Origin: Macrostomum lignano
Lineage: Eukaryota
DNA: 64,000 nt
Assembly: GCA_002269645.1 (NCBI GenBank)
Contig: NIVC01003710.1
Coordinates: 17,352-81,351, forward strand
Direction of reading: 5' to 3'
This document shows positions 11,063-64,000 of this stretch, one piece after another (position 1 is the first letter of the stretch; the number at the start of each line of letters is the position of its first letter). A program made the translations under genes and the position numbers. Below the pieces are notes generated by a model, which saw only the letters and a program-made list of their open reading frames with translations, searched no databases and was not told the DNA's origin.

Positions 11063-11510
11063 GGTCAAGCCAGGTGTTTGCGCGCGTCGATTAAGATAAT
11101 AAAAGGTGTTTTCTTCGGCGGATTTTCAACTGCAGGTGAAGGTAGGTGAAACTCCAAGGTTTGTTTGGCTCATTATTCAAGGAGAAGAACTTCGCGGTTC
11201 AGCACTGTGGCGCCAATGATGGGTCAGCGCATGGGCCCGTAGTGGCAGTGCTGATTATGGCTACTCATATTATCAATGGGCTTAGCGGGTTTAAAATGCC
11301 ACTCTGAGAATTGTCTGCGGCGATGAGCAGCTGATAGTCCTTGACAGTTGCGACTCAGAATAAGATGAGCTATTTTAAAGTAAGTGTGAAAAATAGCACT
11401 TGCCAACCAATTGTCGAGAATTGTCTTCAGTTATTGTTTTTAGATGATTTTCTAACTGAGGAGGGAGTAAGTATTGATATTGCGTTCGATACATTGCCTG
11501 CGTTAGTTTC

Positions 11511-12830
<1,320 letters not shown>

Positions 12831-13654: not shown

Positions 13655-14685
13655 AGTTTGTGACGTCTTGTTTGTGAAGAGTCCAGTTTGTGAAGAGTCC
13701 AGTTTATGAATTGTCTAGTTTGTGAAATTTCTAGTTTGTGAAATGTCTAGTTTGTGAATTGTCTAGGTTGTGAAGTGTCTAGGTTGTGAATTGTCTAGTT
13801 TGTGAAATGTCTAGTTTGTGAAATTTCTAGTTTGTGAAATTTCTAGTTTGTGAAATGTCTAGTTTGTGAAATTTCTAGTTTGTGAAATGTCTAGGTTGTG
13901 AATTGTCTAGTTTATGAATTGTCTAGTTTGTGAAATTTCTAGTTTGTGAAATGTCTAGTTTGTGAAGTGTCTAGGTTGTGAATTGTCTAGTTTGTGAAAT
14001 GTCTAGTTTGTGAAGTGTCTAGTTTGTGAATTGTCTAGTTTGTGAATTGTCTAGTTTGTGACGTGTCTAGTTTGTGAAGTGTCTAGTTTGTGAATTGTCT
14101 AGTTTGTGAAGTGTCTAGTTTGTGAAATTTCTAGTTTGTGAAATGTCTAGTTTGTGAAGAGTCTAGTTTGTGAATTGTCTAGTTTGTGACGTGTCTAGTT
14201 TGTGAAGTGTCTAGTTTTTGAATTGTCTAGTTTGTGAAGTGTCTAGTTTGTGAAATTTCTAGTTTGTGAAGAGTCTAGTTTGTGAAGAGTCTAGTTTGTG
14301 AAGAGTCTAGTTTGTGAAATTTTTAGTTTGTAAAGTTTGTGAATTGTCTAGTTTGTGACGTGTCTAGTTTGTGAAGTGTCTAGTTTGTGATGTGTATAGT
14401 TTGTGAGTTGACTAGTTTGTGAATTGTATAGTTTGTGACGTGTATAATTTGTGACGTGTATAGTTTGTGAGTTGACTAGTTTGTAGAGAGTCCAGTTTTT
14501 GAATTGTCTAGTTTTTGAATTGTCTAGTTTGTGAAGTGCCTAGTTTGTGAAATGTCTAGTTTGTGAAATGTCTAGTTTGTGAAGTGTCTAGTTTGTGAAA
14601 TGTCTAGTTTGTGAAATGTCTAGTTTGTGAAGTGTCTAGTTTGTGAATTGTCTAGTTTGTGAAATGTCTAGTTTGTGAAATGTAA
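13655..14685. repeat. 16-bp minisatellite (CTAGTTTGTGAAATGT)n
   Basis: Directly visible, with variant units. Confidence 0.95.
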
Positions 14686-15149
14686 AATTTGCGAAGAGTG
14701 TAGAAGTTTGCAGTTTTCAAAAGCGCCCCTAAGATTTTTCCTCCATAACATCCTACTCCAAATGCTGCTCTATTTAGTAATCCATGACTGACACGTTCAA
14801 GACTTGATCGCTCAAGGGGGAGGGCTGGAACTGGGCCCAGAGCAGGTGCGAGGCGGAGATGTGGCGGCGCACCGCTACCACAGAGAAAGGGAGAGAGAGG
14901 GGGGGCTAAAGGTGACAGTCTTGAAGAAATTGATGGCAAACTTGAGAAAACAAGAAGAAATTTCTTCAGTGCAAGGCAGACCAAAAGGTTGGATTCAGAG
15001 GGTTGGAAGCAGGGCTTTTCTATGCTGAAAGCAACAATGCAAAACTCCAAAGCATTGAAAAAGAGAAATTCTAATATTATTGACTTTAATTATTGAATTG
15101 CATTTGCAAACGCAAGGAGGAATCAGCCAGTCAGCCAACTAGATGAGCC

Positions 15150-18058: not shown

Positions 18059-19557
18059 CGCGCCTGGGGTTTGTTTAGACAATTGATTTTATATGTCTGC
18101 TTAGATACCGGAACTATGTGCTTCATAATTCTCCCATGAGAGCTAGCTTCCTGGTTGTTAGTTGCGGCCATAAACTAAAGTTCAGTACGTCTGCATTGAA
18201 CCTTAATCGATTCTATATACCCTTGATGAAGCCACTCAAGCCACCTAGCAGGAGCGCGAGACCATAGACTGTGGCTTCTGCTGCTCTCAAGCATTAGCAT
18301 CAGCAGCTGGTATCTGTGGCCCTAACCCCAGGGTTTTTAGGGCCTCGGAGACGGCCGCTGAATACATTAGCGAATGCTGGAGCGACATATCTAGGCAAAG
18401 AGTATTGAAGCAATATAGATGAGGCGCATCTAGGTAATACTCTTTGCATCTAACCTGTCATCTAGCCTACTATCTAGCCTACCTACATGCAGGTAATATA
18501 GAATCTGTGTTTGGTAGTAGATTGATAAAAAAGGCCACAGAGAGGATAACGCGTACGAATATCGCACCAAAAGTATCCAGGTTGATTCCGAGGGCTCGTA
18601 CACCCTGTGCGAATATGTGCATGCGTGTGTATGTAAGTGCGGCATGGGGGAACTGGGGAGGGAGGGGGTTGGCGCAACGCAACCTGACGACTCTGCGACT
18701 CTCAGTCTGTCTCTCTACTGGCTGCACTTTTTGAATGCTCGCGGTTCCTGCACATGATAGCTGAAACTAGCCAAGGTAACTTCTAGTGGTCCTTGAAACA
18801 AATATTAGAGACACTGCTTTAGTGCCACGTGACAGCGTCAGTTAGGGGGATGGAGGTTAGTTGAGCCGGACGTCTCGTAGAAAACGTTGACAGAGAAGCA
18901 AGCGCTGCTAAGGATCCAAAAGACACGATGAAAATAATTGTCAAGTAAATAGGTATTTTATTCAGGTAAAAGGAGAATCACAATTAATAACGAACCGAAG
19001 TCATACTACTGCAGTTGAAATCATTAGGACTCATTAAAGTGCTTGCTAGTTGCAACTTACCAAAGGTCTATCGGTATTAAGAAAAGCTAGATGACAGGAT
19101 GAGGGCAGGCTGCAGTGTTTCTATTGCTTACAGTGTTGAGAGCCAAGTGCTGTAGATGTGCAGCTCTGAATTAGGTTTTTTTCTAGAATTTGGGATAGAG
19201 AATGAGTGAGGCGGGGCCGGCAGTGCACAACACAGTACAATAGTTGGCCCCAGAGGACCTGGCCCTGTACACAGTCTGTGTGCGCGCAGCATGTAGAATT
19301 TGCGCGGCTAATTTGGACCTGCGATGCAACATGAAACTTTATCATCATTAAATCTAATAATCAACATTTTTTATGTTCCACCTTTTATTTCGTGTTGGCA
19401 GTTTCACGATTCTTGTCTCCTGAGGCCAGGCGTACATAATAGCTTTCTGATTGACATTTAATGCGCTTCGGCCTTATGAAGCTGAGATTTTATTCTGGTC
19501 CAATGACTGGCCTCTGTAGTCTGGTCTAGAAAAAAGATGCACTTGAATGCATCCGTT

Positions 19558-20757: not shown

Positions 20758-23032
20758 CTTACTACTTACTATCGACGGGGGGCAGAGCGCCGCGATTAGG
20801 CCGCAAGGCCCCTATCGCAACCCCAAGCTAAAAACAGAAAGGCGTTAGCCTTGGGGCTGCGCCCACCCCTCGTCGGCAGCAGAAGAGCTCGCGAGAGTGG
20901 CGTCTGCGATCTTCATCCGCCCAGAATCCCGAACGAATGCGCGCAGGTCACGGATCCGGTCCGGAGTGGTGAGCTCGTCCAGCCTTAGCGGGTGACCGAG
21001 GTGACGCCTCCGCGCCTCGTTGAAGTGCGGGCAGAAAGTGACGTGGTGCGTCGAGGTTTCCTCCTCTAGATCACAGAATGGGCAGATGGGGAGCAGCCAC
21101 TTTGCAGTGAAATGTCTCTGGAAGAAGCCATGGCCAGTGATGACCATGCACATCTCCCTGAGGTTTTACTTGAGGAGATTAGATATTCGGATACTTTCCG
21201 GTTTATGACAGGCATTGCGATTCGCGTTTGCCGATATTCGGAGCAGCTGTTCCAGTGGACCTGGTGCTGGCGGTTCAGCCACTCTTGAATGGCGCGATTG
21301 ACTGATGATTTCGAAGAGGGTAACCTTGACTGGGCGTTGCGCTCCACCGGGGGTGCAACCCCGCTTGGCGAGTTGATCTACCAGCTCATTGCTGAGGATG
21401 TTGCTGTGGCCTGGTGTCCAGATAACATTGATCCTGTTGAGAATCGCCAGGGTCTGCAAGCTTTTGAAGCAGTCTGAAACTGACTTGGTTGAGAGCTTGA
21501 TGGAAGACAAGGCCTTAATAGCGGCCTGGCTGTCAGAGTAAAAATAAATGTCAAAGCTGCTGATACCAGCTTTGTACGAATGCTCCGCACACTGGTTGAT
21601 GACTACAACTTCGAGTTGAAAAACCGAGACATTCTCACCAAGATGAAGACTCTCTTGTAAGATCGCACACCCTTGTGGAAAATGGCGATGCCCGCGCCCG
21701 CGAGACCGTCACACAGGGATCCGTCAGTGAAGCAGTGAATGCCCTGGCTTCTACGGTTGATGCCCACATCTAGCGGGTGGCTCCCTCGCGGCGGAAGGGT
21801 ACACTTGAAGCCCTTCCTGAGGATGAAAGTGGGGGTTTGCAGTCCAACTCGTCTAAATTGAGCTGGATGTGTTGAAGGTCGCGACGGATATAGTCCAGAT
21901 GCGGGAAAAGAGTCTTCTCGGGCATGAAGCCCGAGGGAGTGTTAGCAATAAATTTATCACAGATGAGACGCGTGGCATCCTTCATCGCCTCAGCTCTAAT
22001 GAACAAATGCAGCGGAGGCATGCTGAGGATGGTTTTGAGCCCCTCGTAGGGGTGGAAGGACACGCACCGGTGATGGCACGGCAGATGTTACCCTGAAGCT
22101 GGTACAGCCGGTCCCGCACAGTCTTCAACTCCAACGCACTGGACCAGATAACACACGCGTAGGTAATACTGGGTCGAATGATGCCGTTGTAGATCCACCT
22201 GACCGTCTTGGGAGATAGCCCCCAGGTAGGCCCAATGACTCTCCTCACCTGCGCGAAGCAGCGCCTGGCGCGCTCGATGACATTGTCAGCGTGCTTGGTC
22301 CAACGCAAATCGTGAGTGAGCGTCACACATAGATATTTTGTTTCCTTGACTAGGGGGATGCCTTACCATAGATGTTGAGGTTCCGCATGCTCCACTTCCG
22401 CTTCCTGGTGAAGATAATGGCCACCGTCTTAGCGGTGCTAATGGTTAGGCCGTGCTGGGTATCCCAGGCTTGCGCCTTATCGGCGAACTGCTGCATCAAG
22501 CTTCGAAGAGTGCTGGTGTCAGGGCCACTGACAATAGCAGCGACATCATCAGCGTAGCCTGCCTTGACTATGCTGCTGGGGACATCAGCCGTTAGGAGCT
22601 CGTCCATCACGAGATTCCAGAGCAGCGGGGTGAGCACCCCACCTTGGGCTCCGCCTTTAGTAACCGTATGGGTGCAAGTGGCATCCATGAGGGAGGAAGT
22701 CACCTTCCTGTTCCGAATCATAAAGTCGATCCATCGCACAATCCTGGGTCGGACCTTTTTCTGCAAAGGGGAGTCACTGAAGGAGCCAAATAAAACGTTA
22801 TTGAAGGCCCCATCGATGTCACAGAAAAGCCCACAGGCAATCTGCTTGCTCAGGATAGCTTTCTCAATGGCAGAGGTGATAACATGCAAAGCATGCTCGG
22901 TAGTTTTACCTGGTTGGAAGGCGAATTGGTGCTTACTTATGGGTGCAGTCCTCAACTCGCAGTCGTGCAGCCTCCACAAGATGAGTTTCTCCATCAGCTT
23001 GACACAAAAGGATGTTCGGCTGATGGGGCGGA
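20758..23032 (-). mobile_element. 5'-truncated non-LTR retrotransposon (LOA/R1-like): RT + RNase H + C-terminal zinc finger, frameshifted
   Basis: RT: [80 protein letters not shown]. RNase H: FTDGS, FQLE, YSDSQAA, WTPGH..NELVDQLAK. ITGH...CPFC..ET..H...C. 3' tail TAGTAAGTAGTAAG. 14-bp TSD ATAGATCATGGATA at 20744-20757 and 23033-23046. Confidence 0.93.
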
Positions 23033-23162
23033 ATAGATCATGGATAGTCATAGATTATAGATCATAGATAGTCATAGATCATTAGATGATAGATAGTCAT
23101 AGATCATAGATCATAGATCATAGATAGTTATAGATCATAGATCATAGATAGTCATAGATCTT
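23033..23162. repeat. (ATAGATC/ATAGTC)n satellite, right part
   Basis: Same units as 20014-20757. Confidence 0.93.
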
Positions 23163-23660
23163 AGTCTTAGTCATAGCCTTAGATCATAGTCAGGCTCAAA
23201 ACAATCTTGCTCTCATTTTTGTCAGACCCTGGTAAAAGCGAGTGCGAGTGGCTTTGCGGGTCCGAAATTGGTCAAATATATTGTAGAATGGGTATGAACC
23301 AACTGTACATTGATTCTATTCATAATATTGATTCGCTTTAGCCTAACGTATTCCGCATGATTTGAATATTTAATGTATGATGTTTAATATCCAAATGGAT
23401 TTACAAATTTGGATGTGCGAGAATTATTTACGGAATAATGGTATGATATTATGATAATGTGATAATAAAATTTTATCCCAGCAGCATCACTGCCGTTGCC
23501 TGCCGAATCAGTTTTTTTATATCTGGTCATGAAGGAAACTCTTGAGAGACTCTTAAAACTGCAGCTATCAGACACGAACCCGTTGAAACAATAAAATTAG
23601 TGCTATTATGCGAAAATACTGGTTTAATAATCAGAATTGATGGCTAAAATGCCAAACTCT

Positions 23661-24280
23661 TGGAGAGAGAAGAGGAGAGAGGAGAGGAGAGGAGAGAAGA
23701 GGAGAGGAGAGGAGAGGAGAGGAGAGAAGAGGAGAGGAGAGGAGGGAGAGGAGAGGAGAGGAGAGGAGAGGAGAGGAGAGGAGAGGAGAGGAGAGGAGAG
23801 GAGAGAGAAGAGGAGAGGAGAGAAGAGGAGAGGAGAGGAGAGGAGAGAGGAGAGGAGAGGAGAGGAGAGGAGAGAGGAGAGGAGAGAAGAGGAGAGGAGA
23901 GGAGAGGAGAGAGGAGAGGAGAGGAGAGGAGAGGAGAGAGGAGAGGAGAGGAGAGAGGAGAGGAGAGGAGAGGAGAGAAGAGGAGAGGAGAGGAGAGGAG
24001 AGAGGAGAGGAGAGGAGAGGAGAGGAGAGAGGAGAGAGGAGAGGAGAGGAGAGAGGAGAGGAGAGGAGAGGAGAGAAGAGGAGAGGAGAGGAGAGGAGAG
24101 GAGAGGAGAGGAGAGAGGAGAAAGGAGAGGAGAGGAGAGGAGAGGAGAGGAGAGGAGAGGAGAGGAGAGGAGAGGAGAGGAGAGGAGAGGAGAGGAGAGG
24201 AGAGGAGAGGAGAGGAGAGGAGAGGAGAGGAGAGGAGAGGAGAGGAGAGGAGAGGAGAGGAGAGGAGAGGAGAGGAGAGA
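23661..24280. repeat. (GGAGA)n microsatellite
   Basis: Directly visible. Confidence 0.97.
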
Positions 24281-24656
24281 GGCAGTCATTCATAGGCAGT
24301 CAAATGGCTCGCAAGCAATTTTCGCGCTTACACATGGTACTAAAAAGATTACTGGCTACAATACTCGTAGAACTTGCCTAATATGGTTGCCTGATGAACA
24401 CGTTAAAATTAGTCGAATTTGGCAGAAATTTTGACGGTTTTCCTCAGAACAGTTAATTAGTCTGACGCTCAGAACTCCAAATATGGCTTAATCTGACATT
24501 TCCTCTCAAGTAAAAAGTTAAGACAGCCTAATGATGAAACTGCTTCTGTTAAAAAAACCTCACCTAAAAGTTTGAGAGCTATAATAATAAAGTAAAAGAA
24601 AGAACTGGAAAAATGCATCAACAATCCAGCTTTGAGTTTTTTTAGCACATCAATAG

Positions 24657-25175
<519 letters not shown>

Positions 25176-25483
25176 TAGCGAAATGGGCGGCAACGCCTCC
25201 TCGCTTCATCCGGATGCACGGAGCCCCCCTGCAGCTGACTCAAGTACGTTCGACATGGATAATCATACTTGATTCCTTGACTACGCTCATATTTCGGCAT
25301 TACTTACTTCTTACTCCCGGCACAAAATCCCCCCAAGGCCAGAGAGTTCAGCCAATTTGAAAGATCCTGTTTGAAGGAAATAGCAGAACTACAGGCAGGC
25401 ACCGCCTCCTGTCAAGTCGTATTCCGATTGATTCTTCCTTGAAAGCGTCAAGAGAGCGTCTCGGTCGGCCAGGCCGTCACGAG

Positions 25484-25624: not shown

Positions 25625-25717
25625 CCAATAGGAAGGGAAGCGAGTTGACGTCACTCTCCACTAGGGAATTGGCAGACACCAGCAGTGGCGCAGGCAAGCA
25701 AGCTCTGCACTGATTGG
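25625..25717 (+). promoter_or_regulatory. CCAAT (25625), CRE palindrome TGACGTCA (25646-25653) and ATTGG (25713) upstream of the GPCR
   Basis: Motif matches and position only. Confidence 0.35.
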
Positions 25718-25869
25718 CTGACGGTCAGGTCTCAGTTTTAGGACTTGGCAGTAAAAAGACAGGCCCTCCCTATAGAAGGGGTGCCGCTCTCACTTCAAAA
25801 CGCTGCGTAGATTTGCAGTTTGCAAAGCTGCGCCGCTATAGTGAAACCTTTATTTATTTAGCCAGGAAA

Positions 25870-27234
25870 ATGTTCGAAGGCACTTTCCTGTACAGGCGCT
25901 ATCCGCTAAACAGCAGCGTATGCGACGCCATCAAATGGAAGCTTAACCTGAGCCAGCGATACATGGACAGCTCGTGCAATCAGAAGGACATCCGCATGTC
26001 GAGCATCTTCCTGCCCGTCAGTCTGCTCGGCCTGAGCCTCAGTCTGTTCAGCGCCGTAGTGCTCATCCGACAGCGTCAGAGAACGTCCTTCCGCACGAGC
26101 CTCATCGCCCTGTCCGCCACCATCAGCTGCTACATGCTCTTCTCCTCTCTGGACTTCATCAACGTCCTGTCCGGGGCCTGTCTCTACTGGCGGGAGCCGC
26201 GCCGACACGCCCAGGTGTTCCTGGGAGCCGCAATCTGCCTGCTGGTCGACACCATGATCTGCGTGCGCAACTGGTGCAATGTGTTCATGACGGCGCAGCG
26301 CACCGAGGCGTTGCTGTTTCCTTTGCGCGTTAAGAAACTGCTCAATAAGAGAAACTTCATCATCTGCCTGCTCACGATGCTGTTCATCTCTCTTCCTCTG
26401 GCCTTGATCCGTTCAATGGCCGAGGTCTTTGTTGTGTGCGCGGACGATGACTCGGGCGAGGTGTACGGCATTGTCGGCTATCCACTGTCGGACGAGGAGA
26501 GCAGCTCCAGCCCGCACCTGTACAGCAGGAAGCGTCATTTCCATTTTCTACTCAACGAAGAGAGCTGGTTCAATCACTACGAGTACTATGGCTTTTTCTC
26601 TGTCCAAACCGTCGCCCCCGTGCTGCTGGTGACGACTTTCTCGCTCATCATGTCTGTTGCCATGCTGCGCCGCTGCAGCAGCTCTGGCGGCGGCGGCAGC
26701 GGTGGCGGTGGGGCTGGAACGAACGCGCAGCTGTCAGCAACCGCCAGCGCCATTGCCAACAACCGACAGAGCAAGCGCAACAAAGTCCGCGCCAGCCGCA
26801 CAGTCCTCTGCCTGGCCGCCATCTTCACCGCCTTGCAGATGCCAACGTTCCTGTTCGCTCTCATGCTGACCAGCTCCTCCCTGCCCGAGGAGTCCACGGC
26901 CGGCAAGATCTTCCAGTTTGTGGCCGAGCTCTGTCTGCTCCTGGACTCGATCCTCAACATCTTCGTCTACGCCTACTATGTGCCAGACTTTCGCTTATGC
27001 TGCGCGCGCATCTGCGGTCGTCTAGCTGGCCGCCGTGACGGCGGCGGTGGCGGCGGCGGCGGCGGCGTCGGTGGCAGTGGAGTCGGCGCTGAGCGCGGCG
27101 GACGCTGCACTGGTGGCCGAGGCCGAGGCCGCTCCAGCGGGACAGCCGCGGCGGCGACGCTGGTGGTGCTGGAGGTCAGACAGCCGCTGCAGTCCTGCCG
27201 CTCAGCTGAAGACGACGCAGAAGAGGAGGACTGA
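25870..27234 (+). CDS. Single-exon rhodopsin-class (class A) orphan peptide-receptor-like GPCR, about 454 aa
   Basis: Seven hydrophobic segments; TM3 end MTAQRTEALLFPLR, TM6 FTALQMP, TM7 DSILNIFVYAYYVPDFR; N-terminal NSS/NLS glycosylation sites. Start taken at AAAATG 25870. Confidence 0.88.
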   Translation: MFEGTFLYRRYPLNSSVCDAIKWKLNLSQRYMDSSCNQKDIRMSSIFLPVSLLGLSLSLFSAVVLIRQRQRTSFRTSLIALSATISCYMLFSSLDFINVLSGACLYWREPRRHAQVFLGAAICLLVDTMICVRNWCNVFMTAQRTEALLFPLRVKKLLNKRNFIICLLTMLFISLPLALIRSMAEVFVVCADDDSGEVYGIVGYPLSDEESSSSPHLYSRKRHFHFLLNEESWFNHYEYYGFFSVQTVAPVLLVTTFSLIMSVAMLRRCSSSGGGGSGGGGAGTNAQLSATASAIANNRQSKRNKVRASRTVLCLAAIFTALQMPTFLFALMLTSSSLPEESTAGKIFQFVAELCLLLDSILNIFVYAYYVPDFRLCCARICGRLAGRRDGGGGGGGGGVGGSGVGAERGGRCTGGRGRGRSSGTAAAATLVVLEVRQPLQSCRSAEDDAEEED

Positions 27235-45182: not shown

Positions 45183-45331
45183 TCTGTCGCTTATCCAAGC
45201 CCCAGAATCTTCTCCTCATCAGTTAGCCAAGTCTCTGTGGCAGCCGGAATACCCAGAAGAGCAGCGAACTGGATCAGCGCAGTCAGCAGCAGCAGCAGGC
45301 GTCGGCGTTGGCCGCCCTGTTCCACGAGATC

Positions 45332-46041
45332 ATGCGAGAGCGGAAGCTTGCCGCCGTGGCTGCGGCAGCCGCTCCTGGAAGCAGCAATCCGTTTAGTCTG
45401 CTCATGGAGCAGCAACAGCCGCAGCCGCCGCCACCGCCGCCGCCCGCGATGCTTCTCCCGCCACCCCCGCCGCCGCCGCTACCGTCGCTGCAGTTCGGGC
45501 CGGAGCAGGTTGGCCGCGTCTGCGAGACCTTGGAAGAATCCGGCGACATCGACCGGCTGGGCCGCTTCCTCTGGTCGCTGCCGGCCAACCCGCTGCTGTG
45601 GGAGGCGCTGAACCGGCACGAGTCCGTGCTGCGGGCCCGTGCCATCGTGGCCTTCCACACCGGCAACTACAGGGAGATGTACCACCTCATGGAGATGCAC
45701 CACTATGGCAAGGAGTCGCACGCCAAGCTGCAGGCCATGTGGCTGGAGGCGCACTACTTGGAGGCTGAGAAGCTCCGGGGCCGCTCGCTGGGCCCGGTGG
45801 ACAAGTACCGGGTGCGGAAGAAGTACCCGATGCCCAGGACCATCTGGGACGGAGAGCAGAAGACGCACTGCTTCAAGGAGCGAACCAGAGGCTTGCTGCG
45901 CGAGTGGTACCTGCAGGACCCGTACCCCAACCCGGCCAAGAAGAGGGAGCTGGCTGCGGCTACTGGCCTGACGCCCACCCAGGTGGGCAATTGGTTCAAG
46001 AACCGGCGACAGCGGGACCGGGCCGCCGCGGCTAAGAGCAG
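45332..46041 (+). CDS. six3/6: Six3/6 (optix) homeobox protein, exon 1: SIX domain + homeodomain
   Basis: [30 protein letters not shown]...[46 protein letters not shown]...[19 protein letters not shown] is diagnostic of Six3/6. Phase-2 donor AG|GTGAGC at the conserved position. Confidence 0.97.
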
Positions 46042-46075
46042 GTGAGCTGACCAGTTATAGCGGTTGCTATGTGCT

Positions 46076-53611: not shown

Positions 53612-54146
53612 CATTGGCGCCAAGTTGGATTTTAGGGGCGCCAAATTAGATTTTAGGGGCCCAAGTTGAATTTTAGGGGTGCCAAGTTTGATTTTAGGAG
53701 CGCGAACTTCGATATCAAGGCGCCAAATTAGATTTAAAGGGCGCCAAATTGGATATCAAGGCGCCAAGTTGGATATTTGGGGGCGCCAAGTTTGATTTTT
53801 GGGTGCGCCAAGTTGGATTTTAGGGGCGCCACACAAGTTGGATTTTCGGGGGTGCCAAGTTGGATTTTAGAGGCGCCAAGCTGGATTTTAGAGGCGCCAA
53901 GTTGGATTTTAGGGGCGCCACACAAGTTGGATTTTCGGGGGTGCCAAGTTGGATTTTAGGGGCGCCAAGTTTGATTTTTGGGTGCGCCAAGTTGGATTTT
54001 AGGGGCGCCACACAAGTTGGATTTTCGGGGGTGCCAAGTTGGATTTTAGGAGCGCCAGGTTGGATTTTAAGGGCGCCAAGTTGGATTTTCGGGGCGCCAA
54101 GTTGGATTTTAGGGGCGCCAAGTCTTTTTAGGGCGCCAATTTGGAT
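53612..54146. repeat. About 21-bp minisatellite (GGCGCCAAGTTGGATTTTAGG)n abutting the provirus terminus
   Basis: Directly visible. Confidence 0.92.
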
Positions 54147-54154
54147 ATCAGGGC

Positions 54155-54424
54155 AGTAGTATATAAAAAGACGCTTCTAGACCCAGAGCACTTTTTTAAT
54201 GACCGTTTTAAGGGTCTAGAGGGGGGACACGGGTGGTAAATAAAAAAACACATCTAAACACCATTAACACATCTAATCACCCATAATCACCCCTAACAAT
54301 AAAATCACTTCCCAACACTTCCAAACACTCCCCAACACCCCCCTCGCGTCCCCCCTCTTAAGACCTTACAAACGGCCATTAAAATAAGGTCTGATCTAGA
54401 AGCGTCTTTTTCTATACTACTACT
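54155..54424. repeat. Terminal inverted-repeat structure: two arms of about 80 bp around a G-poor spacer
   Basis: AGTAGTATATAAAAAGACGCTTCTAGA (54155) versus the reverse complement of the arm ending at 54424, AGTAGTAGTATAGAAAAAGACGCTTCTAGA; similarity continues through TTTAATG.CCGTTT and AGAGGGGGGAC. Confidence 0.85.
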
Positions 54425-54478
54425 CTATAACCCCTTGCCCGCGCCGCAGGCGCGAAGGGTCTTTTTCTGTTACTAAAA

Positions 54479-54793
54479 ATGACCCGAGTTTACACCTTTT
54501 CTGTTAGTGATACTTTTGAGACTGTTGCTAAAAATGCAGAGATAATAAAACAACATATTTTGAATGGAATAATTGATGAAGTTTATTTAAAATATGACGA
54601 CAAGCACGACCTAAAACTTTATCCATTAGAGCTAGATGAGATGTATGATTTAGAACAAGAGGGTGAGTTAATATTTCAACTTGGAGATTATTTAAATTCG
54701 GATGATTGGGAGGTTAGATCAACAGATTCCGAATCAACAAATAGTTCATATGAAACCAGTGATTCAGAGAATGAAAGTGAAATTTTTATGTGA
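54479..54793 (+). CDS. Viral hypothetical acidic protein (104 aa)
   Basis: Intact ORF with AAAAATG start; no recognised motif. Confidence 0.6.
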   Translation: MTRVYTFSVSDTFETVAKNAEIIKQHILNGIIDEVYLKYDDKHDLKLYPLELDEMYDLEQEGELIFQLGDYLNSDDWEVRSTDSESTNSSYETSDSENESEIFM

Positions 54794-54809
54794 AAAAAAT
54801 ATTTAAAAA

Positions 54810-55034
54810 ATGAACTATTATTCTATAACAGAAACGACATTTATTGTGAAAAATATATATAAAAAAATGAAGGTAAACTATTCCTACATCGGAAATGTGC
54901 CGATTAATGAACTTAATGAAAATTTAAGTTTGATAACAGTTGAACAAATGTCAATAATAATATTAGTAACAATTATAGTAATAATATTGTTTTTGTTTGT
55001 TATAAAAAATTTACTACCATGTTGTCTCAAGTAA
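54810..55034 (+). CDS. Viral small membrane protein (C-terminal hydrophobic helix, PCCLK end)
   Basis: SIIILVTIIVIILFLFVI segment; AAAAAATG start. Confidence 0.5.
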   Translation: MNYYSITETTFIVKNIYKKMKVNYSYIGNVPINELNENLSLITVEQMSIIILVTIIVIILFLFVIKNLLPCCLK

Positions 55035-55044
55035 TTGTTCGAAC

Positions 55045-56192
55045 TTAGTTCGCTGATATTAGTTGGTTCTCATAAAACGAACCCAATATTTCTTCACCGT
55101 CCTTATCAGCAATTATATAGGTTGTAGGATTGGTATTTAAAACTTTACTGATAGTAAATTTCTCACTTATCTTCCAATATCCTTTTCTTCCTTTTTCAAA
55201 CTTATCTTTCCATTTATAGATATAAACAGAATCACCAACCTTAAAAGATTTCTTTTTATTTTTTTCAAATTTTCCAAAAGTAACTTTAACGTTTTCAGGA
55301 TTGTTATAAGCTTGTTGAGGAGTCATCTTTATCGCCGAATGATATGAATTGTTATAATCTTTCACTACGTCTGGTAATATTTTTACCCATTTTTGGTTAC
55401 CATTAAGACTAAACTGAAACCATAATTTCTTACCTAAAGTTCTATTAAATCTTTCTATTAATGCGTTTTTACTCTCTCCATAAATAGAATAAATTTTATT
55501 AATATACTCCCCATTCGCGTCTTTTTTCCTTTCTTGTCCTTTTTCAAAATGATATAATTTATACATATGAGGATTGTAAAATTCTTTTCCTTCGTCAACA
55601 CACAAACGTTCGCTTTTTTCTCCAAGACTTCTAAAAGCAGCAGCAACATCCTCTCCTTTTTTGGATTTCAAAGGAACAGCCCACGCGTATCGAGTAAAAC
55701 CATCTAATATGGTTAAGATATATTTATATCCTCTTTCGTTCGGCATCGACATTAAATCAGCATACCAAATTTCATTCTTTTTGAAGTTCATGATTTTTCT
55801 ATAAAATTTAGGTTTTCGATATTCTTTATGAAGAACCTTAGCCTTATCATAACTTAGCCCACTACCACTTAATAACAAACATTCGACACAATTATTACCA
55901 TGTTGGTTGTAATTAATTCCTAAACCAAATTTAACTTTAGATTGTAGAATTTTTTTAACCATCCACCTAGTTAATCTTTGCCCTACCGATAATCCCTGCA
56001 AGTTATCTAATCCTTGAATCATTTTTTGATCGGCTTCATGTTTTAATCTTAATGCTTCCTCGGGCGGGTTCTTGTCAGCATCTCTATATGCTAAGTCGTG
56101 ATAGTATGCTAACCAATCAATCCCATTTATTGGAATTGAATCGGCTTTTGGGTGTCATCAGGATTTAATCTCAAATCTAAGCGAGTGCCGGG
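55045..56192 (-). CDS. Exon 2 of the PLA2X-integrase fusion: PLA2 catalytic region followed by a Polinton rve (DDE) integrase
   Basis: PGTRLDLRLNPDDT(P)KADSIPINGIDWLAYYHDLAY...EADQKMI...KVKFGLG, then KVLHKEYRK, WYADL, YILTILDGFTRYAWAVPLKSK, VDEGKEFYN, IERFNRT, YNNSYHSAIKMTP, FKVGD..GSFYENQL. One -1 homopolymer frameshift near 56150; no chromodomain. Confidence 0.92.
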
Positions 56193-56495
56193 TAGTTTAC
56201 CCTCAATCTTTCGAAAGAGGCTGGAGCACACCTTAAGCGGCGATAATTACCGCCCATCTCCGTCTGCTCTCTGAACCTTCTCCTTATATTTAAAATACTT
56301 AGGAGCTTGGCTGCGCATTGCCACCGTGTCTTCAAGCTTTTTACCTTTGGGAAGAGGAGTTACCTCTGTTCCTTCAAAAGATTTCTCAATTGAAGTGGTA
56401 CTTGAAGCTGTATGATGGGTTTCACGCAATTTGGAGATGTCGCCACAAATAGTGACTAGCAAGGACATTGCCTTCCTCACTCAGGCCACGGGTTA
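56193..56495 (-). ncRNA. Group I self-splicing intron (IC1-like, 303 nt)
   Basis: P AAAUUGCGUGAAA; Q GGCAAUGCGCAGCCAAGCUCCUAAG; R GUUCAGAGAGCAGA; S AAGGUGUGCUCC. P3 CAUCUCC/GGAGAUG; P7 G(A)GAGCA/UGCUCC; P5abc with GAAA L5b; 11-nt-like receptor CCUAAG..UAAGG; U.G at the 5' splice site. Removal restores MNFTG-PGT. Confidence 0.93.
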
Positions 56496-56621
56496 ACCTG
56501 TGAAGTTCATTGATGGTAGGTGTAGTTCCCCTGTATATTTACCAGTAGTAAAGATTGGTGGTAAGCTTGTTAATCCTTTTTGAACATCTAACAATCCTCC
56601 TTCAAACACTATTTGGTTCAT
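56496..56621 (-). CDS. Exon 1 of the PLA2X-integrase gene (MNQIVFEGGLLDVQKG...GELHLPSMNFTG)
   Basis: AAAAATG start; 42 codons ending in GGT. GELHLPxxNFTG joined to PGT is the parvovirus-like PLA2 Ca-binding loop. Confidence 0.88.
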
Positions 56622-57170
56622 TTTTAATAGCCTTAAAAATACATGAAAGCACCAATTGTTTTGCAAACTCTTCAATGGTTGGTTGTTTAACTTTTTTATA
56701 GTTATTATCTACGCTAGTTAAGTATCTTTTATTTCTCCAATTTTCAGACTTTTTAATCTGATCATCGTCTTTGTAACTAAATGAAGAAGCGGGGATGAAA
56801 TGATCAATATCTAACTTTCCAGTATAATCTTTTGATACATAATAATTTCTTGTGAAATTTAACCAATCAAAAAAGAATTCTTTTGTGCAACCAAGATATG
56901 AGATATAGTCCTTGTCATTAAAATTTTTCAACGCCCAATTTATTCTATTTCTAATTAAAACAATATGTTTGTAATTATCATCAGTGTGATACTTATTTTT
57001 TCTATATTCATTCCATTTATCTTTATTGTTTTTTATCCAAATAGCAGATGAGGTATTATGACAAGATCGACAATCATTTCTAAATTTTTTTGAATCATTT
57101 CTCCAAAAATAAAATTCTTTGTCATCGGTTTTTCTTGTTTACACTTAGTACAAATCTTATTAGTTTCCAT
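56602..57170 (-). CDS. HNH-family endonuclease with N-terminal CxxC-CxxC zinc ribbon (giant-virus type), frameshifted near the 5' end
   Basis: METNKICTKCKQEK...CRSC...YLGCTKEFFFDWL...LDIDHFIPASSF...ENWRNKRYL..VDNNYK; TATAAAATG start at 57170. Confidence 0.75.
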
Positions 57171-57197
57171 TTTATAAAAAATAAATTTAACAATTAA

Positions 57198-57862
57198 TTA
57201 AACACCAGTATGTCCAGCAGCTTTCGCAGCAGCTAAAACAAGTTTTCGTGGTGTTTTAAATCCATCACCAACAGCTAGCTTGTTATTTATAGAATTAACA
57301 ATCCTTTTATACAAGCTGGTATTTTTAACAGCTCCTCCTAACTCATCATAAAAAATTCTAGCACTTATTAATTCATCCCTAGTATATAAATCAGGGTTAA
57401 ATTTTACCCTAGGGTTCATAACAATATTATATGCTCCACCCAATTCTCTATATAGTTCATTTCGATTTTTATCAACTCCACCAATTCGATAATTATTATT
57501 ACCTAAATCTGTCGCAGCAATACTAGCTGGTACTCTTGGATATTGTTCCCGATCGCCCCGCTCTGCACGTCTAATCTCTGCAATTCTCAATTGTGCTTGA
57601 TCAACATCATAAGCAGGCGGCTCATCTAAAAGTTCATCCTCTTTTGGCTCAGTATTTTTAGCAATTTTTTCCAGAAGATCTTTATCTGTTTTTTCTAGTT
57701 CACTAATTTTCCCAGTAATAGGATTAACAAAAGGAGCAGCAAATCTTTCACCGCTAATTGTATTCCTAACTTTCTTTTTTGTAAATTTCTAACAAAATCA
57801 GAATATCTTTGCTTCTCTTTATAAATCGCTAACTCTCCATCAACGTCCATAAATTGACTCAT
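57198..57862 (-). CDS. Viral hypothetical protein (frameshifted; includes ORF 57198-57590)
   Basis: AAAAAATG at 57862; reading frames join through A-runs (MSQFMDVDGELAIYK...AAPFVNPITGKISELEK...LRIAEIRR...HTGV*). Confidence 0.55.
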
Positions 57863-57896
57863 TTTTTAACATAAAAAACTTTTTTAACTTAAAAAA

Positions 57897-59450
57897 ATGG
57901 CTGAAACAAAAACTATGTGGAGTGATAAATTTCATTTCAAAAAGCACCGACAGTATATTAATGAGGTCAGAGCAAGAGATTTAAATTATACCCTACCAAC
58001 AAGTGATAATTCAAATAACTTTACTACTGGAACGGTAACTTTTGACATCGGCGCAACCAACACTATATTGGATATGAAAAATGCATTTTTCCCGTGTTAG
58101 ATGGTTGTATACTAGAAATGATGGAACTGCTCTTGCAGCCGGAGATATCGCAGATCGATCCGGAATAATAATAGAAAATGATTGGTTTTATAAATGTTTT
58201 TCCCAAGCTCAACTAACTGTTAATGGTGCTGAGGTTGAGACATCATCAAACCCCGCAGAGATTAATGGAGTTTTGAAACATTTAAATTATACTTATTTAT
58301 CAAAACAAGTTGGTGATAATGTTGGGTGGATGCCGGATAAAGGTAACGGTCAAGCAGTAGTTTTCCCTAATGTACAAAACGCAGCCGGTGCAGATACTGC
58401 AGCGCTAATTGTTTACCTTAATACAAACATAGTTCCAGTTGTAACCACTATGACTAATACAAAAGATATTAATACTGGTTTTATAGATAGACGTCAGAAT
58501 AAATTCCCAGTCGCGGTTTTAACCACAGCAACAGCATATGAGCAGGACTTTTCAATCTTCCCTATTTGGGTTTTCTCACCAAATCGGGTATGGAAAGGAT
58601 TAAAATTTGGGATACAGTTGCAAATATCTGGTGGATATCAGCCTAGGATACTTTATGGAACCTCAATTTCAACCGATATAGCAGTTCGTATAGATTCAAT
58701 TCAATTAGTCGTACCAACTATTGAGGTAACAGCCCCACTTTTAAAACACATCGATAATCAGTTAACGCATGATCAGGAAATATTTTATTTGAATCGTCGA
58801 CATTTTATGCGAACCATTAATAATAACCAGGATTCATTCCAGTGGCAAATACTGACATCAAAACGTCGGGTGAGATATATTTTTGTTTGGTTTAAGATAA
58901 CAAATAGAAGGAGTAAAAGAGCAAATGGGGATTTATATTGGCTTCAATCCGGTGCCATAGCAGAACAAGCAGCCACCGCAACAGACAATGCGGCTGCAGC
59001 TATTAACGAGTTTAATGTTCAGAATATCCGCCTGCAGGTTGATGATCAATATTATCCGGTTAAAGACCCCTAAATTTAAATATAGCAAATAATAATGTTA
59101 ATGATTTTATAAAATATTATCAAGATTATGCTAAAAATGAAGCGTATGCCGTCCCTCAGTACACACCCACAGAGTTTCTAAACATTCATCCAGTGGTTGT
59201 TTATGATCTAACGGCACAGAAAGAAAACGTAGCCAATATTGGACTTAATTATATGTTAGAGATTAATAAAACCGGTAATCAGGCACTTGACGCCCACGTA
59301 TTGTTTCTAGAGGAATATATGTCAATTGCTAAAGCTGATGGCACGATTGTTCGGGACGCCCATTGTAAAATGAGTGCAGTGCAAAGCACGTCGCACCACT
59401 TTAGTGTCGCAGGTCTCCGACCGTCGCGCCTATTTAAATTATTTCTTTAA
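57897..59450 (+). CDS. Major capsid protein (double jelly-roll, Polinton hexon/PY), in three frames owing to homopolymer indels near 58091 and 59070
   Basis: FDI..TNTILDMKNAFF(R)VRW; FSQAQLTVNGAEVET; IQLVVPTIEV; RVRYIFVWF; NIRLQVDDQYYP..(L)NL; VVVYDLTAQKE; DAHVLFLEE. Size and position fit an MCP. Confidence 0.82.
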
Positions 59451-59452
59451 AA

Positions 59453-60249
59453 ATGGTAAAGGCAAAACACGATAAGATATTTCCAAATGATCCTTTTCTT
59501 TGTTTAGTAATCGGAGGATCAGGTAAAGGAAAAACACACTTTGTTTACGATTTATTAACAACAGATGGAATGTTAGACTATAATAATTTAATAATTTATA
59601 CTAATAAACCTAGAATAAAATATTATGAATTTCTTAAACATGGATTAAAAAACAAATTAAAAAAAGATGTCTTGTTTAGAATGTTAAGAGCATATGAGCA
59701 ATATGAGGATGATGACGAACCGCGATTTAATCTAGCAGACATTGAGGATTTATGTAAAACAATGGCACAACAGCCAGAAAACATCACCGATCGCCCGAAG
59801 GGTCGCGGACTTCGTCCGATCGCGCCCAACTGTTAGAGTATCAACCCGATTAGCCTATGATCAAATTCCAAAAATGATAAAACACTAATTATTTTGATGA
59901 TTGTATTAATGACGGTGATCAAGAATTGCAAAAGGAAATTTTTGTTAGTGGTAGAGGAGATGGAATTGGAGCTTTTTATCTTACTCAATCCTTTAGAGAA
60001 TTAGAATCGATTATAAAAAAGAATGCTAGCTGTTGTGTAATGTTTGATTTAGATAACTATGATCTACAAAATATTCACGCTAGATTTAATCCCGGATTGG
60101 ATGCAAAACCATTTAAAAGTATGTGTAAAAAAATTTGGGATGATAGCCAATACAAACATATTTATATCAATCCGAGGTTAGAAAGGAAACATAGAATTTT
60201 AACAAATTTGATAAAAGAAGATAATGAGGAAGAAGAGGATCGTGCATAG
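59453..60249 (+). CDS. A32/FtsK-like genome packaging ATPase (frameshifted at about 59829-59895)
   Basis: Walker A GGSGKGKT; Walker B LIIFDDC (reconstructed); SGRG..FYLTQSF..IKKNA..F. Confidence 0.9.
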
Positions 60250-60284
60250 CACGCGGACTTCGTCGTTAATTTCCCACTATAAAA

Positions 60285-61059
60285 ATGACTACAAATTTAA
60301 ATACTATAAAACAATTGGTAGATCGAACTAATTCAAAATTTAGTACAACATTACAGTTTATAATGACAACCAGCGAGCAACGGATTCAATTGCGCGATCC
60401 ATTACAACTTGATCAAAGCCTAAGTTATCAAATAGGTTTAATCTATTTTCGGTTTTCAACATGCCTCAATTAATTAATGCAACAAATAATCAATTTAGAT
60501 ATTCTAAAGATTCCGGAGCCAATTGGACAACATTTAGCGTTAACCCAGGAGCGTATAGCTATACTGATTTGAATGCTTATATAGAAGGAGAATTAACAAC
60601 TAATGGTGATTGGGTAGCAGGAGCAATTGTTATAGGTGTTGATTTACCGTCTGGCAGATTCACACTATCACTAGGATCCGGATATCAGGTTGATTTCACA
60701 ATTGCAAATTCACTCAGAACCATACTTGGATTTAATTCCCGAATAGTTACCACATCAAGCACCGGTGATACCGTGGGAAATATTGAGGGTGGAGTAATAC
60801 AATTAATATAACAACCGACATATCAAACGGCGTTATATAACAGATAATAATGGAGTTTTGGTTCAACGTGGAATTATTTATTCAATCCCATTTCTTGCTG
60901 TTCCAATTGGAGAGAAAATGATTGTTCACCCAAACCCCAATATATTATTAAATCAATATAGTTCAATCAATTTATATTAGGATTGTAGATGAAAGCGATA
61001 GATTAATAAGTTTTGGTGGGCAGTCAATAACAATAATTTTACGTATAAAACAGGTTTAG
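60285..61059 (+). CDS. Minor capsid protein (penton, single jelly-roll), frameshifted
   Basis: YQIGLIYF..N..INATNNQFRY, NPGAYSYTDLN, VDFT..NSLRTILGF, then IYSIPF..PIGEKMIVHP and IRIVDESDRLISFGGQSITIILRIKQV*. Confidence 0.85.
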
Positions 61060-61099
61060 ACCGAAGGTTCGCGGACTTTGTCCGTTTCCTATAGTAAAA

Positions 61100-61304
61100 A
61101 TGGGTAATCGAACAACATGTTCGCGTGCAAAGCACGATAATAATAATAATTTAAAAAACAATCAGAAAAAGTTAAAAAAGCTGAAGATAATTACGAACTA
61201 GAACTAGCAAAATTAAGGCAGTTACAAGCTGATAAAATAAGAAAGGAATTGTTAAAACCCACACCTACGAAACTAACTAAAACCAAGAGTTTTTCAGGAA
61301 CATA
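61100..61304 (+). CDS. Small basic/coiled-coil viral protein starting MGN (frameshifted)
   Basis: AAAAATGGGT start; continues after an A-run shift as KKAEDNYELELAKLRQLQADKIRKELL..SGT*. Confidence 0.4.
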
Positions 61305-61306
61305 AA

Positions 61307-61746
61307 ATGACCATGACGTGGGATGATTTTAAACAAAGATATGGAACGGACACAACAAGCAATATCGAATTAACAAATTGGGCGAGGCAGTTAAAAATAA
61401 AACCATTCAGATGTGTTATGCGAGATGAGATCAAAGACTTACCACAATATGGATCTTTCATTGTTAATATTGAAACAACAAAAGAAAATGGTGTTCATTG
61501 GTCGCAGTTTATTCCAAACCTAAACTTGTTTATTTTTTTGATTCATATGCGCTTCCTCCGTTACAGGAAATAAAAGACAAATTTAATCATACTAAAAATC
61601 GTTTATGTGGAGATCATCACGAACAATTTCAAACATTTGATAAAAGTTATTGCGGGCAAGCGGCGTTGTATTTTTTATATCGACTTTCGAATGAAGCTCG
61701 TGTAAACCCCGAAGTATTTAAGAATATTTTAGACTCTATAAAATAG
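61307..61746 (+). CDS. Adenain-like cysteine protease (one frameshift at 61500)
   Basis: TSNIEL..., IVNIE...GVHW(V)AVY, YFFDSY, QFQ.FDKSYCG: His-Asp-Gln-Cys catalytic set. Confidence 0.92.
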
Positions 61747-61756
61747 ACAGTAAAAA

Positions 61757-63800
61757 ATGTTATTTTCTGGAACACCCTCATGGAACGGAACAACAAGTAG
61801 TGGTGGTGGTGGCACATCTGGTGGAATAAGTGTTACCTTCGGAGATAATCGATATATTAATGAGGATGAAGGTTATAAAAAAAGTGAAGTTGATACTAAA
61901 CTAAATTTAAAAAGAAATGTTGCAGATTCCTATACCAAAACTCAAATAGATGATTCACTAAATCTGAAACGGAACGTAGCCGATTCCTATACCAAAACCG
62001 AAGTTGATAATTCATTAAATTTAAAACGCAATACAGCCGATTCTATACCAAAAGAAGTTGATAATTCATTAAATTTAAAACGCAATACAGCCGATTCTTA
62101 TACCAAAACCGAAGTTGATAATTCATTAAATTTGAAACGGAACGTAGCCGATTCTTATACCAAAACCGAAGTTGATAATGGATTAAATTTAAAAAGAGAT
62201 GTAACTGATTCTTATTCTCGAACTGATTCTGATTCACGTTATGTTCAAACCACCGCAACCGGAAACCTAGATATGAGCAACAACCGAATTATAAATGTTT
62301 CAATTACAACTAGTGATTCAGTGGTTGATAAGAACTATGTCGATAATCAAGTTGCCACTCGTAGTGGTAATATTAATATGAATAATTTTAAATTAACAAA
62401 TTTATTATTTGGAACAGATAACGCAGACTCGATAACTCTAGGCCAAGTAAATGAGCGAGCTAATGCAACCAACGCCGATATTTTTACCACGCCGCTTACA
62501 TCAAATACTTCAAATCCTGATGTTGTTCTTACAGCATCTGAAAATGGCAACACAGCTTTTCGAGTTGGAGATGGAAGCCTTGCGACACAATGGTCACCAA
62601 ATACCGGAACCACAACCAATATGGAAATTCAATTTGAATTTTTAGGTTATAATAGAAGAATATTTGAATTAAGAATTACAGGCAGTGAAACAATTGAGAT
62701 ACCCTCGGGTGGTCGGTTCGCGCGCAAAAAATGTTGCTACCGATTCATGGACAACATTAACTACGTCGGGATCACCAGTTCAAGCAACATCATTTGCTCT
62801 ATCTAATTTAACGACTAATTTTTGGAAATATTATAGCGTATTCTTCCCAACTGGTGGTACCGGTACACAACCTATCGAGGTTCGTCAAATACAATTATTT
62901 GAACACCGTGTTGAAATTCAAGATCTTAATTGGCCAACTCAAATACTTTCTGCAGTTCCGCGAGCGTACGTAGATCAGCTAGCTACTCCAACATCAAATG
63001 GTAGAATGTCTGGAAGCGATAAAAATAAATTGGATGGAATACCTGCTATTGATGCGGCCTTGTTCGAACCAGTAATTTGCAATTGGTCTGGATATCAAAA
63101 TCCAACAACCGCCGGAGATATATATCCAGTCGGTTCTTTAATTGGTGACGCTTCTTATATCGATTATCAAAATGGAGCTAGAATTACTCGTGAAACTGGT
63201 GGGGTCAGTGGTGCTTTACAATTCAATTTCACACATTTTCAAAATATATCTGCGTCTTTCTTTTTCCGAGTTGCTAATTCTACAGGAACTGGTGCAGATG
63301 CGGTTTGGTTTTATGCATACTGTCACCAACGTCCAACATCGGAAAGCGGGGCAGGTTTATCAACAGACGCTGGATTGATAGTTTTTGCTAGTGAGTGGCA
63401 TGATAAATTTGGCCTACTTTGGAGTTCAAAAAAATCAGACGGATCAAGCCGCGCGGATGTTAATACTGACGCGGATCAAACGGTAGATTATGCAAATATT
63501 GATAACGGTGATTGGCATCTGTTTGAAATTAATATTTTAAATCAAAGGGTTTGGTATAGAATTCATACATACAATGTTGCTGGTGATTCTTATACCCTCA
63601 TTGGACAGAACGTTTTCACATATGATAGTGGAACTTGGGGAACTTTAGATAAATCTGGAACCCTTATGGGTTTTGGTGCTCGAACTGGTGGAGCGGATGC
63701 TGCACATTTTATTCGTGGTGCAGTTGTATGTGGTAGTACGTCGTTTGGTTATGTTTTTCCATCTACTGGTTATTTGGAAAAACCTCCTACTCAAATATAA
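61757..63800 (+). CDS. Fibre/receptor-binding protein: 19-aa stalk repeats, discoidin/F5-8C-like domain, C-terminal L-lectin-like domain (frameshift near 62700-62725)
   Basis: (KRNVADSYTKTEVDNSLNL)x5-6; LDMSNNRIINV / NMNNFKLTNL..GTDNADS; AFRVGDGSLATQW...W...DSWTTL; GRMSGSDKNKLDGI; GADAVWFY..NGDWH..MGFGARTGG..AHFI. Confidence 0.75.
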
Positions 63801-63833
63801 AATATTTATATATATAAAATATTTCTATATAAA

Positions 63834-64000
63834 ATGGCTTTTAGTAGAACCCCATCGATGCGGCAAAATAATGTTATTATTCCTATTCCTAAACAAGAAT
63901 CAAATATAAAAACATTCAAATCTCATACCAAATTTTTATTTAGTACTGTAAATGTTCAGGATAATAAGAAGCTTCAAGAATTAATTAAGTTATTAAAAAT
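63834..64000 (+). CDS. Start of the next viral ORF (MAFSRTPSMRQNN...), truncated by the window end
   Basis: TATAAAATG start, open to position 64000. Confidence 0.45.
   Translation, partial: MAFSRTPSMRQNNVIIPIPKQESNIKTFKSHTKFLFSTVNVQDNKKLQELIKLLK

Follow-up and report, generated by a model that had tools for sequence, protein, structure and literature searches.

The DNA analysed here is a window of 64,000 nt from the flatworm Macrostomum lignano (contig NIVC01003710.1 of GCA_002269645.1, positions 17,352-81,351, forward strand), in which positions 54155-64000 hold an element of the Polinton/Maverick type that runs off the window end. The gene encoding its PLA2-integrase is interrupted, in the conserved loop of the PLA2 domain, by an insert of 303 nt, which we interpret as a true group I intron because its predicted structure and the comparison with intron-less relatives agree. 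Taken as a whole, the explanation that we regard as probable is that the element is a Polinton/Maverick of the adintovirus type in the M. lignano nuclear genome, with its left 9.8 kb in the window, that other members of one Polinton clade also carry its group I intron, and that the copy is broken as assembled. The novelty lies in the group I intron in a protein gene of a Polinton in animal nuclear DNA; the Polinton by itself is ordinary, being of a known kind and adding one more divergent representative to a family that occurs across animals. A preliminary description of this DNA had recognised the virion genes and overlooked the intron, the adjoining HNH gene and the terminal hairpin.

The intron matches the Rfam family RF00028 with 62 bits (curated cut-off 50) and E = 4.3e-14 over model positions 1-253 of 253, and with permissive filters it was the single match in 10.5 kb. 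Both of its boundaries are set by the intron-less relative P0151, which is continuous across the site. Its length is a multiple of 3, and excision restores the conserved reading frame of the relatives. When the helices were checked by hand, P1 was found to be fully paired with a U-G at the 5' boundary, P4, P6a and P7 were also fully paired, and P3, P9 and P10 were paired at 7/8, 6/8 and 4/5 positions, respectively. P8 pairs both in the covariance-model alignment and in the RNA fold, and the two bases before the last base of the intron can pair with the two that follow P7. In its P2/P2.1 helices and its long P5 extension, the intron appears to resemble IC-type introns. The RNA fold has a z of -3.0, and the GC content is 45.5%, against 31.8% in the exon-2 region. 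The insert was also considered as a small transposon with terminal inverted repeats (TIRs) and this was rejected, as the covariance model and P1 explain it; likewise, the 3' end given by Rfam at 56202 was rejected as a splice site, lying as it does inside P9 and leaving three extra residues in the loop. A comparison of the intron DNA with phages returned 32 records, the best at E = 0.3 and none with 80% coverage.

The interrupted gene is a fusion. Its integrase part matches Pfam rve at E = 8e-8 (32.9 bits, cut-off 32.6) with the D, D and E motifs aligned, in agreement with the integrase of the preliminary description, and the PLA2 domain in exon 2 matches Pfam at E = 0.04. The six-frame listing shows the PLA2 frame continuing without a stop into the integrase over 369 codons. 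Among the 120 integrase relatives listed of 367, the closest is P0151, with 70% identity over the searched open reading frame (ORF). Many of those listed hold both the PLA2 and the integrase domains, and the fusion was therefore rejected as a novelty. Gly-rich motifs in the linker of the two domains resemble adenain sites, which suggests that the PLA2-integrase may be a processed polyprotein. A PLA2X gene had been claimed for this element, a name that Starrett et al. define as a PLA2 with a pX-like C-terminus (PMC8502044); that assignment has to be abandoned, since the PLA2 is split by an intron and continues in frame as the integrase, and the element showed no separate gene for a PLA2-pX protein.

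The intron appears to be common to other members of one Polinton clade, in which it is patchy. The PLA2 loop is uninterrupted in 40 of the 120 listed relatives, and 78 are without the region or the motif. Two further relatives, P0153 and P0172, begin with a 13-residue read-through of the 3' end of the intron, identical at 12/13 positions (start codon counted as a match), which joins the exon at the same site and in the same frame as the intron of the window; its last codon, for Leu, is uninformative on the terminal base. Between lineages, conservation of this 3' end exceeds that of the flanking protein, which is at 59-62%. A tree of 31 rows was built from the window ORF together with 30 relatives, chosen in the list of 120 from among the top matches and those with the PLA2 region. 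The three intron carriers all fall inside one six-member clade (100/100), in which the window ORF groups with the intron-less P0151 and with P0152, a relative whose intron status was unread (100/99), and P0153 and P0172 group with the intron-less P0154 (99/98). Because monophyly of the carriers is rejected (approximately unbiased test, AU p = 1e-121), the tree implies two gains, or one gain followed by precise losses, and cannot choose between them.

Directly upstream of the PLA2-integrase lies the putative gene of a free-standing HNH or endonuclease-VII-like nuclease, whose N-terminal part has a Cys-pair zinc site and whose C-terminal part has an HNH-like motif. It matches the PHROG endonuclease VII at E = 0.007 and seven phage records annotated as HNH endonuclease (best E = 3e-4), and it is assigned to Atlas viral clusters at 0.94, the nearest named family being HNH at 0.88. 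Bacterial and archaeal genomes, when scanned, yielded just three loci (38-39% identity), which are too distant to inform on the context of the intron or of the HNH gene and none of which matches the HNH piece. We tentatively put this gene forward as the likeliest mobiliser of the intron, by collaborative homing as in analogous systems.

The element opens with AGTAGT at 54155, immediately 3' of CAGGGC, and the GC content drops sharply at this point, from 47.6% in the host part to 34.2%. AGTAGT corresponds to the (AGT)2 or (AG)3 end motif described for Mavericks (PMC8097293). The (AGT)n terminus of the earlier account is not confirmed in that form: it has just two AGT units and is one arm of a hairpin. 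The junction sequence places the interruption of the host minisatellite inside one 21-bp unit, and as the array directly precedes the terminus, the earlier claim of an insertion beside a host minisatellite stands. Tandem arrays fill the rest of the window; the element itself has just a 57-bp coding repeat and three short repeats (TRF). No second copy of any part of the element, and no TIR, was found elsewhere in the 64-kb window. The host, previously described as an invertebrate and probably a flatworm, can be named from the sequence as M. lignano, one dioxygenase exon in the window being 99% identical to two proteins of this species. Integrase, capsid fold, ATPase, protease and (AGT)2 end together uphold the assignment to a Polinton/Maverick-type endogenous virus; as far as sequence can tell, the features of this family that the window can show are present, penton fold apart.

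The terminal hairpin has arms at ~54155-54240 and ~54339-54424 around a G-free loop of 98 nt, and its inner arm finishes with (ACT)3, so that the Polinton end motifs are found on both arms, which differ from each other mainly by small gaps. The DNA fold reaches -54 kcal/mol with a z of -10.7, and 0/200 shuffles were equally stable. A search of three Polinton papers (PMC8502044, PMC10748475, PMC8097293) gave no occurrence of "hairpin". Short internal hairpins exist in the inverted repeats of L001 and L002, two Polinton-like contigs from the scan of prokaryotic genomes whose gene sets are full and extend to PolB-like ORFs, but no (AGT)n end is present there, and these repeats were ruled out on this account as an explanation of the window hairpin. 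Rfam likewise gave five weak matches and no group I intron in L001, L002 and a third such contig, L003. The first two are binned into bacterial metagenome-assembled genomes and the third into an archaeal one. The capsid-integrase modules of L001 (1886-11269) and L002 (1591-10921) are 93% identical; their PolB ORFs (11055-14948 and 10674-14654, respectively) are very different, which suggests polymerase replacement. The Polinton flank of L001 also holds a weak match to a CPEB3/HDV-like ribozyme (397-482, minus strand; 28.9 bits, cut-off 35, E = 8e-4).

The remaining virion genes support the preliminary description in part. The major capsid protein is 48% and 42% identical to the intact P0001 and P0002, its two relatives by word search, and a profile search gave 174 relatives at E<=0.001. 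An AlphaFold model of a 331-aa capsid piece (65 sequences) has a pLDDT of 86, and it aligns with the Sputnik capsid protein at a VIA Z of 14.7 (rmsd 3.3, 255 residues aligned). Jelly-roll capsid or scaffold proteins make up the whole of the best 15 VIA rows, and the BFVD structure search gave capsid matches from E = 5e-5. The capsid piece is therefore predicted to fold as a double jelly-roll, in line with the major capsid protein of the earlier account; the alignment profile, searched against PDB sequences, gave two chance rows only. The packaging ATPase claimed earlier is supported by a Walker A motif and a tblastn match to the L002 ATPase (E = 1e-10); it matches Pox_A32 at E = 0.005, below the curated cut-off of Pfam, and its L001 counterpart matches Pox_A32 at E = 3e-10. 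The gene is broken in the assembled copy, and a GC-rich repeat occupies the disruption site. The protease, also broken as assembled, is recognised through L001: its pieces show His, Asp and Cys motifs and match the L001 protease at E = 3e-8, which in turn matches Peptidase_C5 at E = 0.006; a search of PDB sequences with a protease piece gave no significant match. E-values of tblastn against L001 and L002 refer to a 10-kb subject. The penton of the preliminary description has in its favour a 30% similarity (E = 1e-14) to the ORF at the penton position in L001/L002, and the fold test failed, the intact L001 ORF modelled from a 3-row alignment reaching a pLDDT of 36. The fibre has PHROG tail-fibre matches (E = 1.7e-5 and 1e-4), which are weak support, and its C-terminal piece has no significant match in PDB sequences and none among phages. 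The larger piece of the 57198-57862 ORF has no match in L001-L003. The two PolB proteins of L001 and L002 have no match in the window, which the element leaves at 64000. All features are collected in Table 1.

Table 1. Features of the element and of its left flank, in window positions.
Feature	Position	Strand	Basis and remarks
Host 21-bp minisatellite	53616-54153		TRF, period 21, 25 copies; flank, outside the element
CAGGGC, candidate left target-site duplication	54149-54154	+	Sequence; hexamer next to the terminus
Left end, (AGT)2 terminus, imperfect hairpin of ~85 bp	54155-54424	+	Inverted repeat, DNA fold, arm alignment
104-aa acidic ORF	54479-54793	+	ORF call; no Pfam/PHROG match, no match in L001-L003
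74-aa ORF, hydrophobic stretch	54810-55034	+	No significant Pfam/PHROG match; may not be a gene
Exon 2, rest of PLA2 domain, then rve DDE integrase	55045-56192	-	Pfam; one frameshift near 56153
Group I intron in PLA2 loop motif, 303 nt	56193-56495	-	Rfam RF00028; no internal ORF of note
Exon 1, PLA2-integrase gene	56496-56621	-	23/32 residues as in P0151 N-terminus; no break
Free-standing HNH/endonuclease-VII-like nuclease gene (putative)	56602-57170	-	Two frames; overlaps PLA2 start by ~20 nt
ORF divergent from capsid gene	57198-57862	-	Two frames; no Pfam/PHROG match
Double jelly-roll major capsid gene (predicted)	57897-59450	+	Relatives, fold; frameshifts near 58092 and 59066
A32/FtsK-like packaging ATPase	59453-60249	+	Walker A, Pox_A32, tblastn; disrupted ~59790-59900
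Probable penton (minor capsid) gene	60285-61053	+	Similarity to L001/L002 ORF; several frames
Small basic ORF	61100-61305	+	Two frames; weak PHROG matches to families without known function
Adenain-type cysteine protease	61307-61746	+	E = 3e-8 to L001 ORF; frameshift near 61503
Probable fibre or receptor-binding gene	61757-63800	+	57-bp repeats (TRF); two frames, switch near 62700
Start of further ORF	63834-64000	+	Six-frame listing; cut by window end

Most genes of the element start in an AAAAATG context, with an A-run (54479, 56621, 57862, 57897, 59453, 60285, 61100 and 61757). A short GC-rich and CpG-rich repeat recurs at 59804, 60252 and 61070, a 9-nt core being common to the three places, and GC-rich stretches are also found at 54423-54465, 59403-59433 and 62698-62729, the last at the frame switch of the fibre gene. 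These repeats sit between genes and inside the ATPase and might represent a mobile palindrome of small size or a signal for regulation; they were rejected as tiny spliceosomal introns, as inspection gave no consistent support. The host DNA (1-53600) is dense with diverse mini- and microsatellite arrays (61 TRF rows for the whole window). It holds a two-exon trimethyllysine dioxygenase of the TauD family (15150-18088), a SIX-family homeobox exon (45227-46045), a 7TM receptor (25714-27234), a PH-ArfGAP exon (7952-9334) and, amid tandem repeats, LINE fragments with RNase H and reverse transcriptase (21166-25178). A 979-codon open frame (3822-6761, plus strand) spans two coding-compatible minisatellites with 42-bp and 24-bp units and has no Pfam match; further ORFs at 1912-2571 and 2869-3366 accompany it.

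Several observations weigh against the interpretation of the element as a flatworm Polinton with a shared and mobile group I intron. At the boundary set by the relatives, the last base of the intron is A, not the terminal G that is used in the second step of group I splicing (PMC3984707). This lowers the likelihood that the intron is an active, canonical member of its class, not that it is built like, and derived from, a group I intron. An A-ending group I intron is said to occur in Coxiella. Rfam with its standard fast filters returned no match in the whole 64-kb window. The intron of P0153 and P0172 is deduced from 13 residues of protein rather than from DNA. The HNH gene has no match in Pfam or PDB, its other matches are weak, and its link with the intron stands on adjacency alone. 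As for the element, the host join at 54154/54155 is that of the assembled sequence; Foldseek against PDB gave no match at E<=0.001 for the capsid (best E = 0.016, the rows listed all being capsid or scaffold proteins); and the penton profile search of PDB was empty, which leaves the 30% similarity noted above as the support for the penton, a single jelly-roll protein in Polintons. It is possible, if not the account that we would choose, that the intron is a dead relic, gained once at the base of the clade and passed on by vertical descent with precise losses, and that the HNH gene travels along without any connection to it. Two changes are required on the tree, for which one gain with losses accounts as well as two gains do, and the confinement of the three carriers to one well-supported clade would fit such a history, as would the non-canonical terminal base. 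HNH and other nuclease genes are moreover described as common in Polintons and Polinton-like viruses (PLVs; PMC10748475 and PMC11296320). Yet all the core helices checked are still paired, and the conservation of the intron 3' end beyond that of the flanking protein fits recent transfer or strong selection for splicing.

Doubt can also be directed at the element and its context. We find it quite improbable that the element lies outside the flatworm chromosome, as DNA of a co-sequenced food alga, protist or free virus misjoined to the minisatellite, which would make the intron one more protist-virus intron. The join is found where a tandem repeat stops, as is typical of misjoins, the window holds no second copy or TIR, the closest relatives are short contigs and the known PLV group I introns come from protists; against this, the boundary falls exactly on the (AGT)2 motif, an unlikely choice for a random misjoin, and the named integrase relatives among the matches listed come from insects. 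It is similarly unlikely that 54155-54424 is by itself a non-autonomous mini-element of 270 bp, complete with the two Polinton ends, and that the coding part is a truncated neighbour. This stretch does start with (AGT)2 and finish with (ACT)3 like a miniature whole element, but the six bases flanking it on the two sides are unlike and the window has no other copy. Because there is no duplication of its own, the hairpin appears more likely to be part of the TIR, and a role in replication priming or end protection, for example, is a guess. The state of the coding part deserves more weight. All five genes that could be aligned to intact relatives are broken, with at least nine frameshifts in all: two in the capsid, one each in PLA2-integrase, protease and ATPase, and four in the penton, for which the reference is distant. 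The ATPase also has two in-frame stops under the best alignment, which paired frameshifts could explain, and further changes of frame, judged by eye in the six-frame listing, occur in the HNH gene, in the ORFs at 57198-57862 and 61100 and in the fibre. The near-complete virion module in under 10 kb reported previously is therefore upheld in gene content and not in integrity, and the potentially virion-forming element is not borne out as assembled, in a pattern that leans to assembly error. Either the provirus has decayed or a younger one has been assembled with poor polishing, and the two cases are not distinguishable here. That the provirus is young and essentially intact, the frameshifts being long-read consensus errors in a repeated AT-rich region, is a reading with a good deal to be said for it, although we stop short of adopting it; the virion-competent element of the preliminary description would then be right. 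Capsid and PLA2-integrase, for which the references are close, have three frameshifts and no in-frame stop, and the penton and protease are also without in-frame stops, although 5-7% of random substitutions would create one. Catalytic motifs are retained, the small-gap differences of the hairpin arms fit such errors, and 5/9 frameshifts lie <=6 nt from a base run of >=4, against a background of 24% (p = 0.044). This homopolymer test is weak, however, as the position of a break depends on the reference chosen; the host trimethyllysine dioxygenase, of 421 residues in two exons, has no frameshift in the same window; the ATPase has its two stops; and 96% of vertebrate Maverick loci are decayed (PMC8097293).

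The closest known system is that of the Polintons/Mavericks (Polintoviricetes), including the 'Alpha/Mayetiola-class' adintoviruses of Starrett et al. (PMC8502044). The window element has in common with them the rve integrase, the double jelly-roll capsid, the A32-like ATPase, the adenain-type protease, the (AGT)2 end, the probable penton and the parvovirus-type PLA2 domain. It differs in that its PLA2 is fused to the integrase rather than encoded by a PLA2X gene (PMC8502044), in its divergent capsid (21% to that of L001), in the hairpin that its end forms, and in its group I intron, intact vertebrate Mavericks being described as intronless (PMC8097293). Group I introns have been reported in protist PLVs, namely those of Rhodomonas lacustris (cluster C3), Paulinella micropora and Desmodesmus armatus, the Rhodomonas introns being 309-376 bp long (PMC12220804). 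The resemblance is that of an RF00028 intron of similar size in a protein gene that lies near the capsid gene of an endogenous virus of Polinton type; in contrast to these introns, the host here is bilaterian, the interrupted gene is identified as PLA2-integrase, the exon junction is fixed by intron-less relatives and a nuclease gene adjoins. Chloroviruses have self-splicing group I introns, e.g. in the TFIIS gene of PBCV-1 (PMC7019647); these are giant algal viruses with described splicing, whereas the present case is a small integrating animal virus with an intron known from sequence. The psbA intron of cyanophage S-PM2, whose intron-less allele is cut by the free-standing F-CphI (PMC6083498), offers a parallel in which a group I intron that lacks an ORF adjoins a free-standing endonuclease whose match is endonuclease-VII-like; here the association of the genes is one of adjacency. 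According to a 2024 review, group I introns are missing from metazoans, with the exception of a small number of non-bilaterian lineages and five sharks, and the described nuclear ones are confined to rRNA genes (PMC10964413); those of PLVs are reported from protists only (PMC12220804). In the literature searched we found neither a report of a group I intron in a Polinton of an animal nor a study of the Polintons of Macrostomum, both negatives being provisional, as most subscription papers and Repbase lie outside its coverage.

From what is known of the family, the rve integrase would have inserted the element, a PolB encoded beyond the window would start from its (AGT)2 ends to copy it, and its packaging would fall to capsid, penton, ATPase and protease. 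The protease probably also releases the PLA2 domain from the integrase, and this domain would aid entry. To judge from the reading frame, an active virus could make PLA2 as well as integrase only if the intron were spliced from the mRNA. Since the intron is patchy within its Polinton clade, it would have moved sideways or been precisely lost more than once, and the HNH gene may mobilise it by collaborative homing. It is doubtful, though conceivable, that the intron functions as a group I ribozyme, perhaps as a natural variant that ends in A, in a bilaterian nuclear protein gene, that it spreads by HNH homing between co-infecting Polintons, and that its splicing gates PLA2 and integrase.

The standard filters of Rfam overlooked the intron, and such introns may consequently be under-counted. 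As it is present in an element of a laboratory flatworm, group I splicing in animal nuclei can be tested directly. The patchy distribution of the intron also marks exchange among Polintons and touches on the question whether those of animals have a viral phase. Should the intron prove to be working and homing, it would represent a route for self-splicing introns into animal nuclei and would indicate, indirectly, that the Polintons of animals encounter one another and recombine as viruses.

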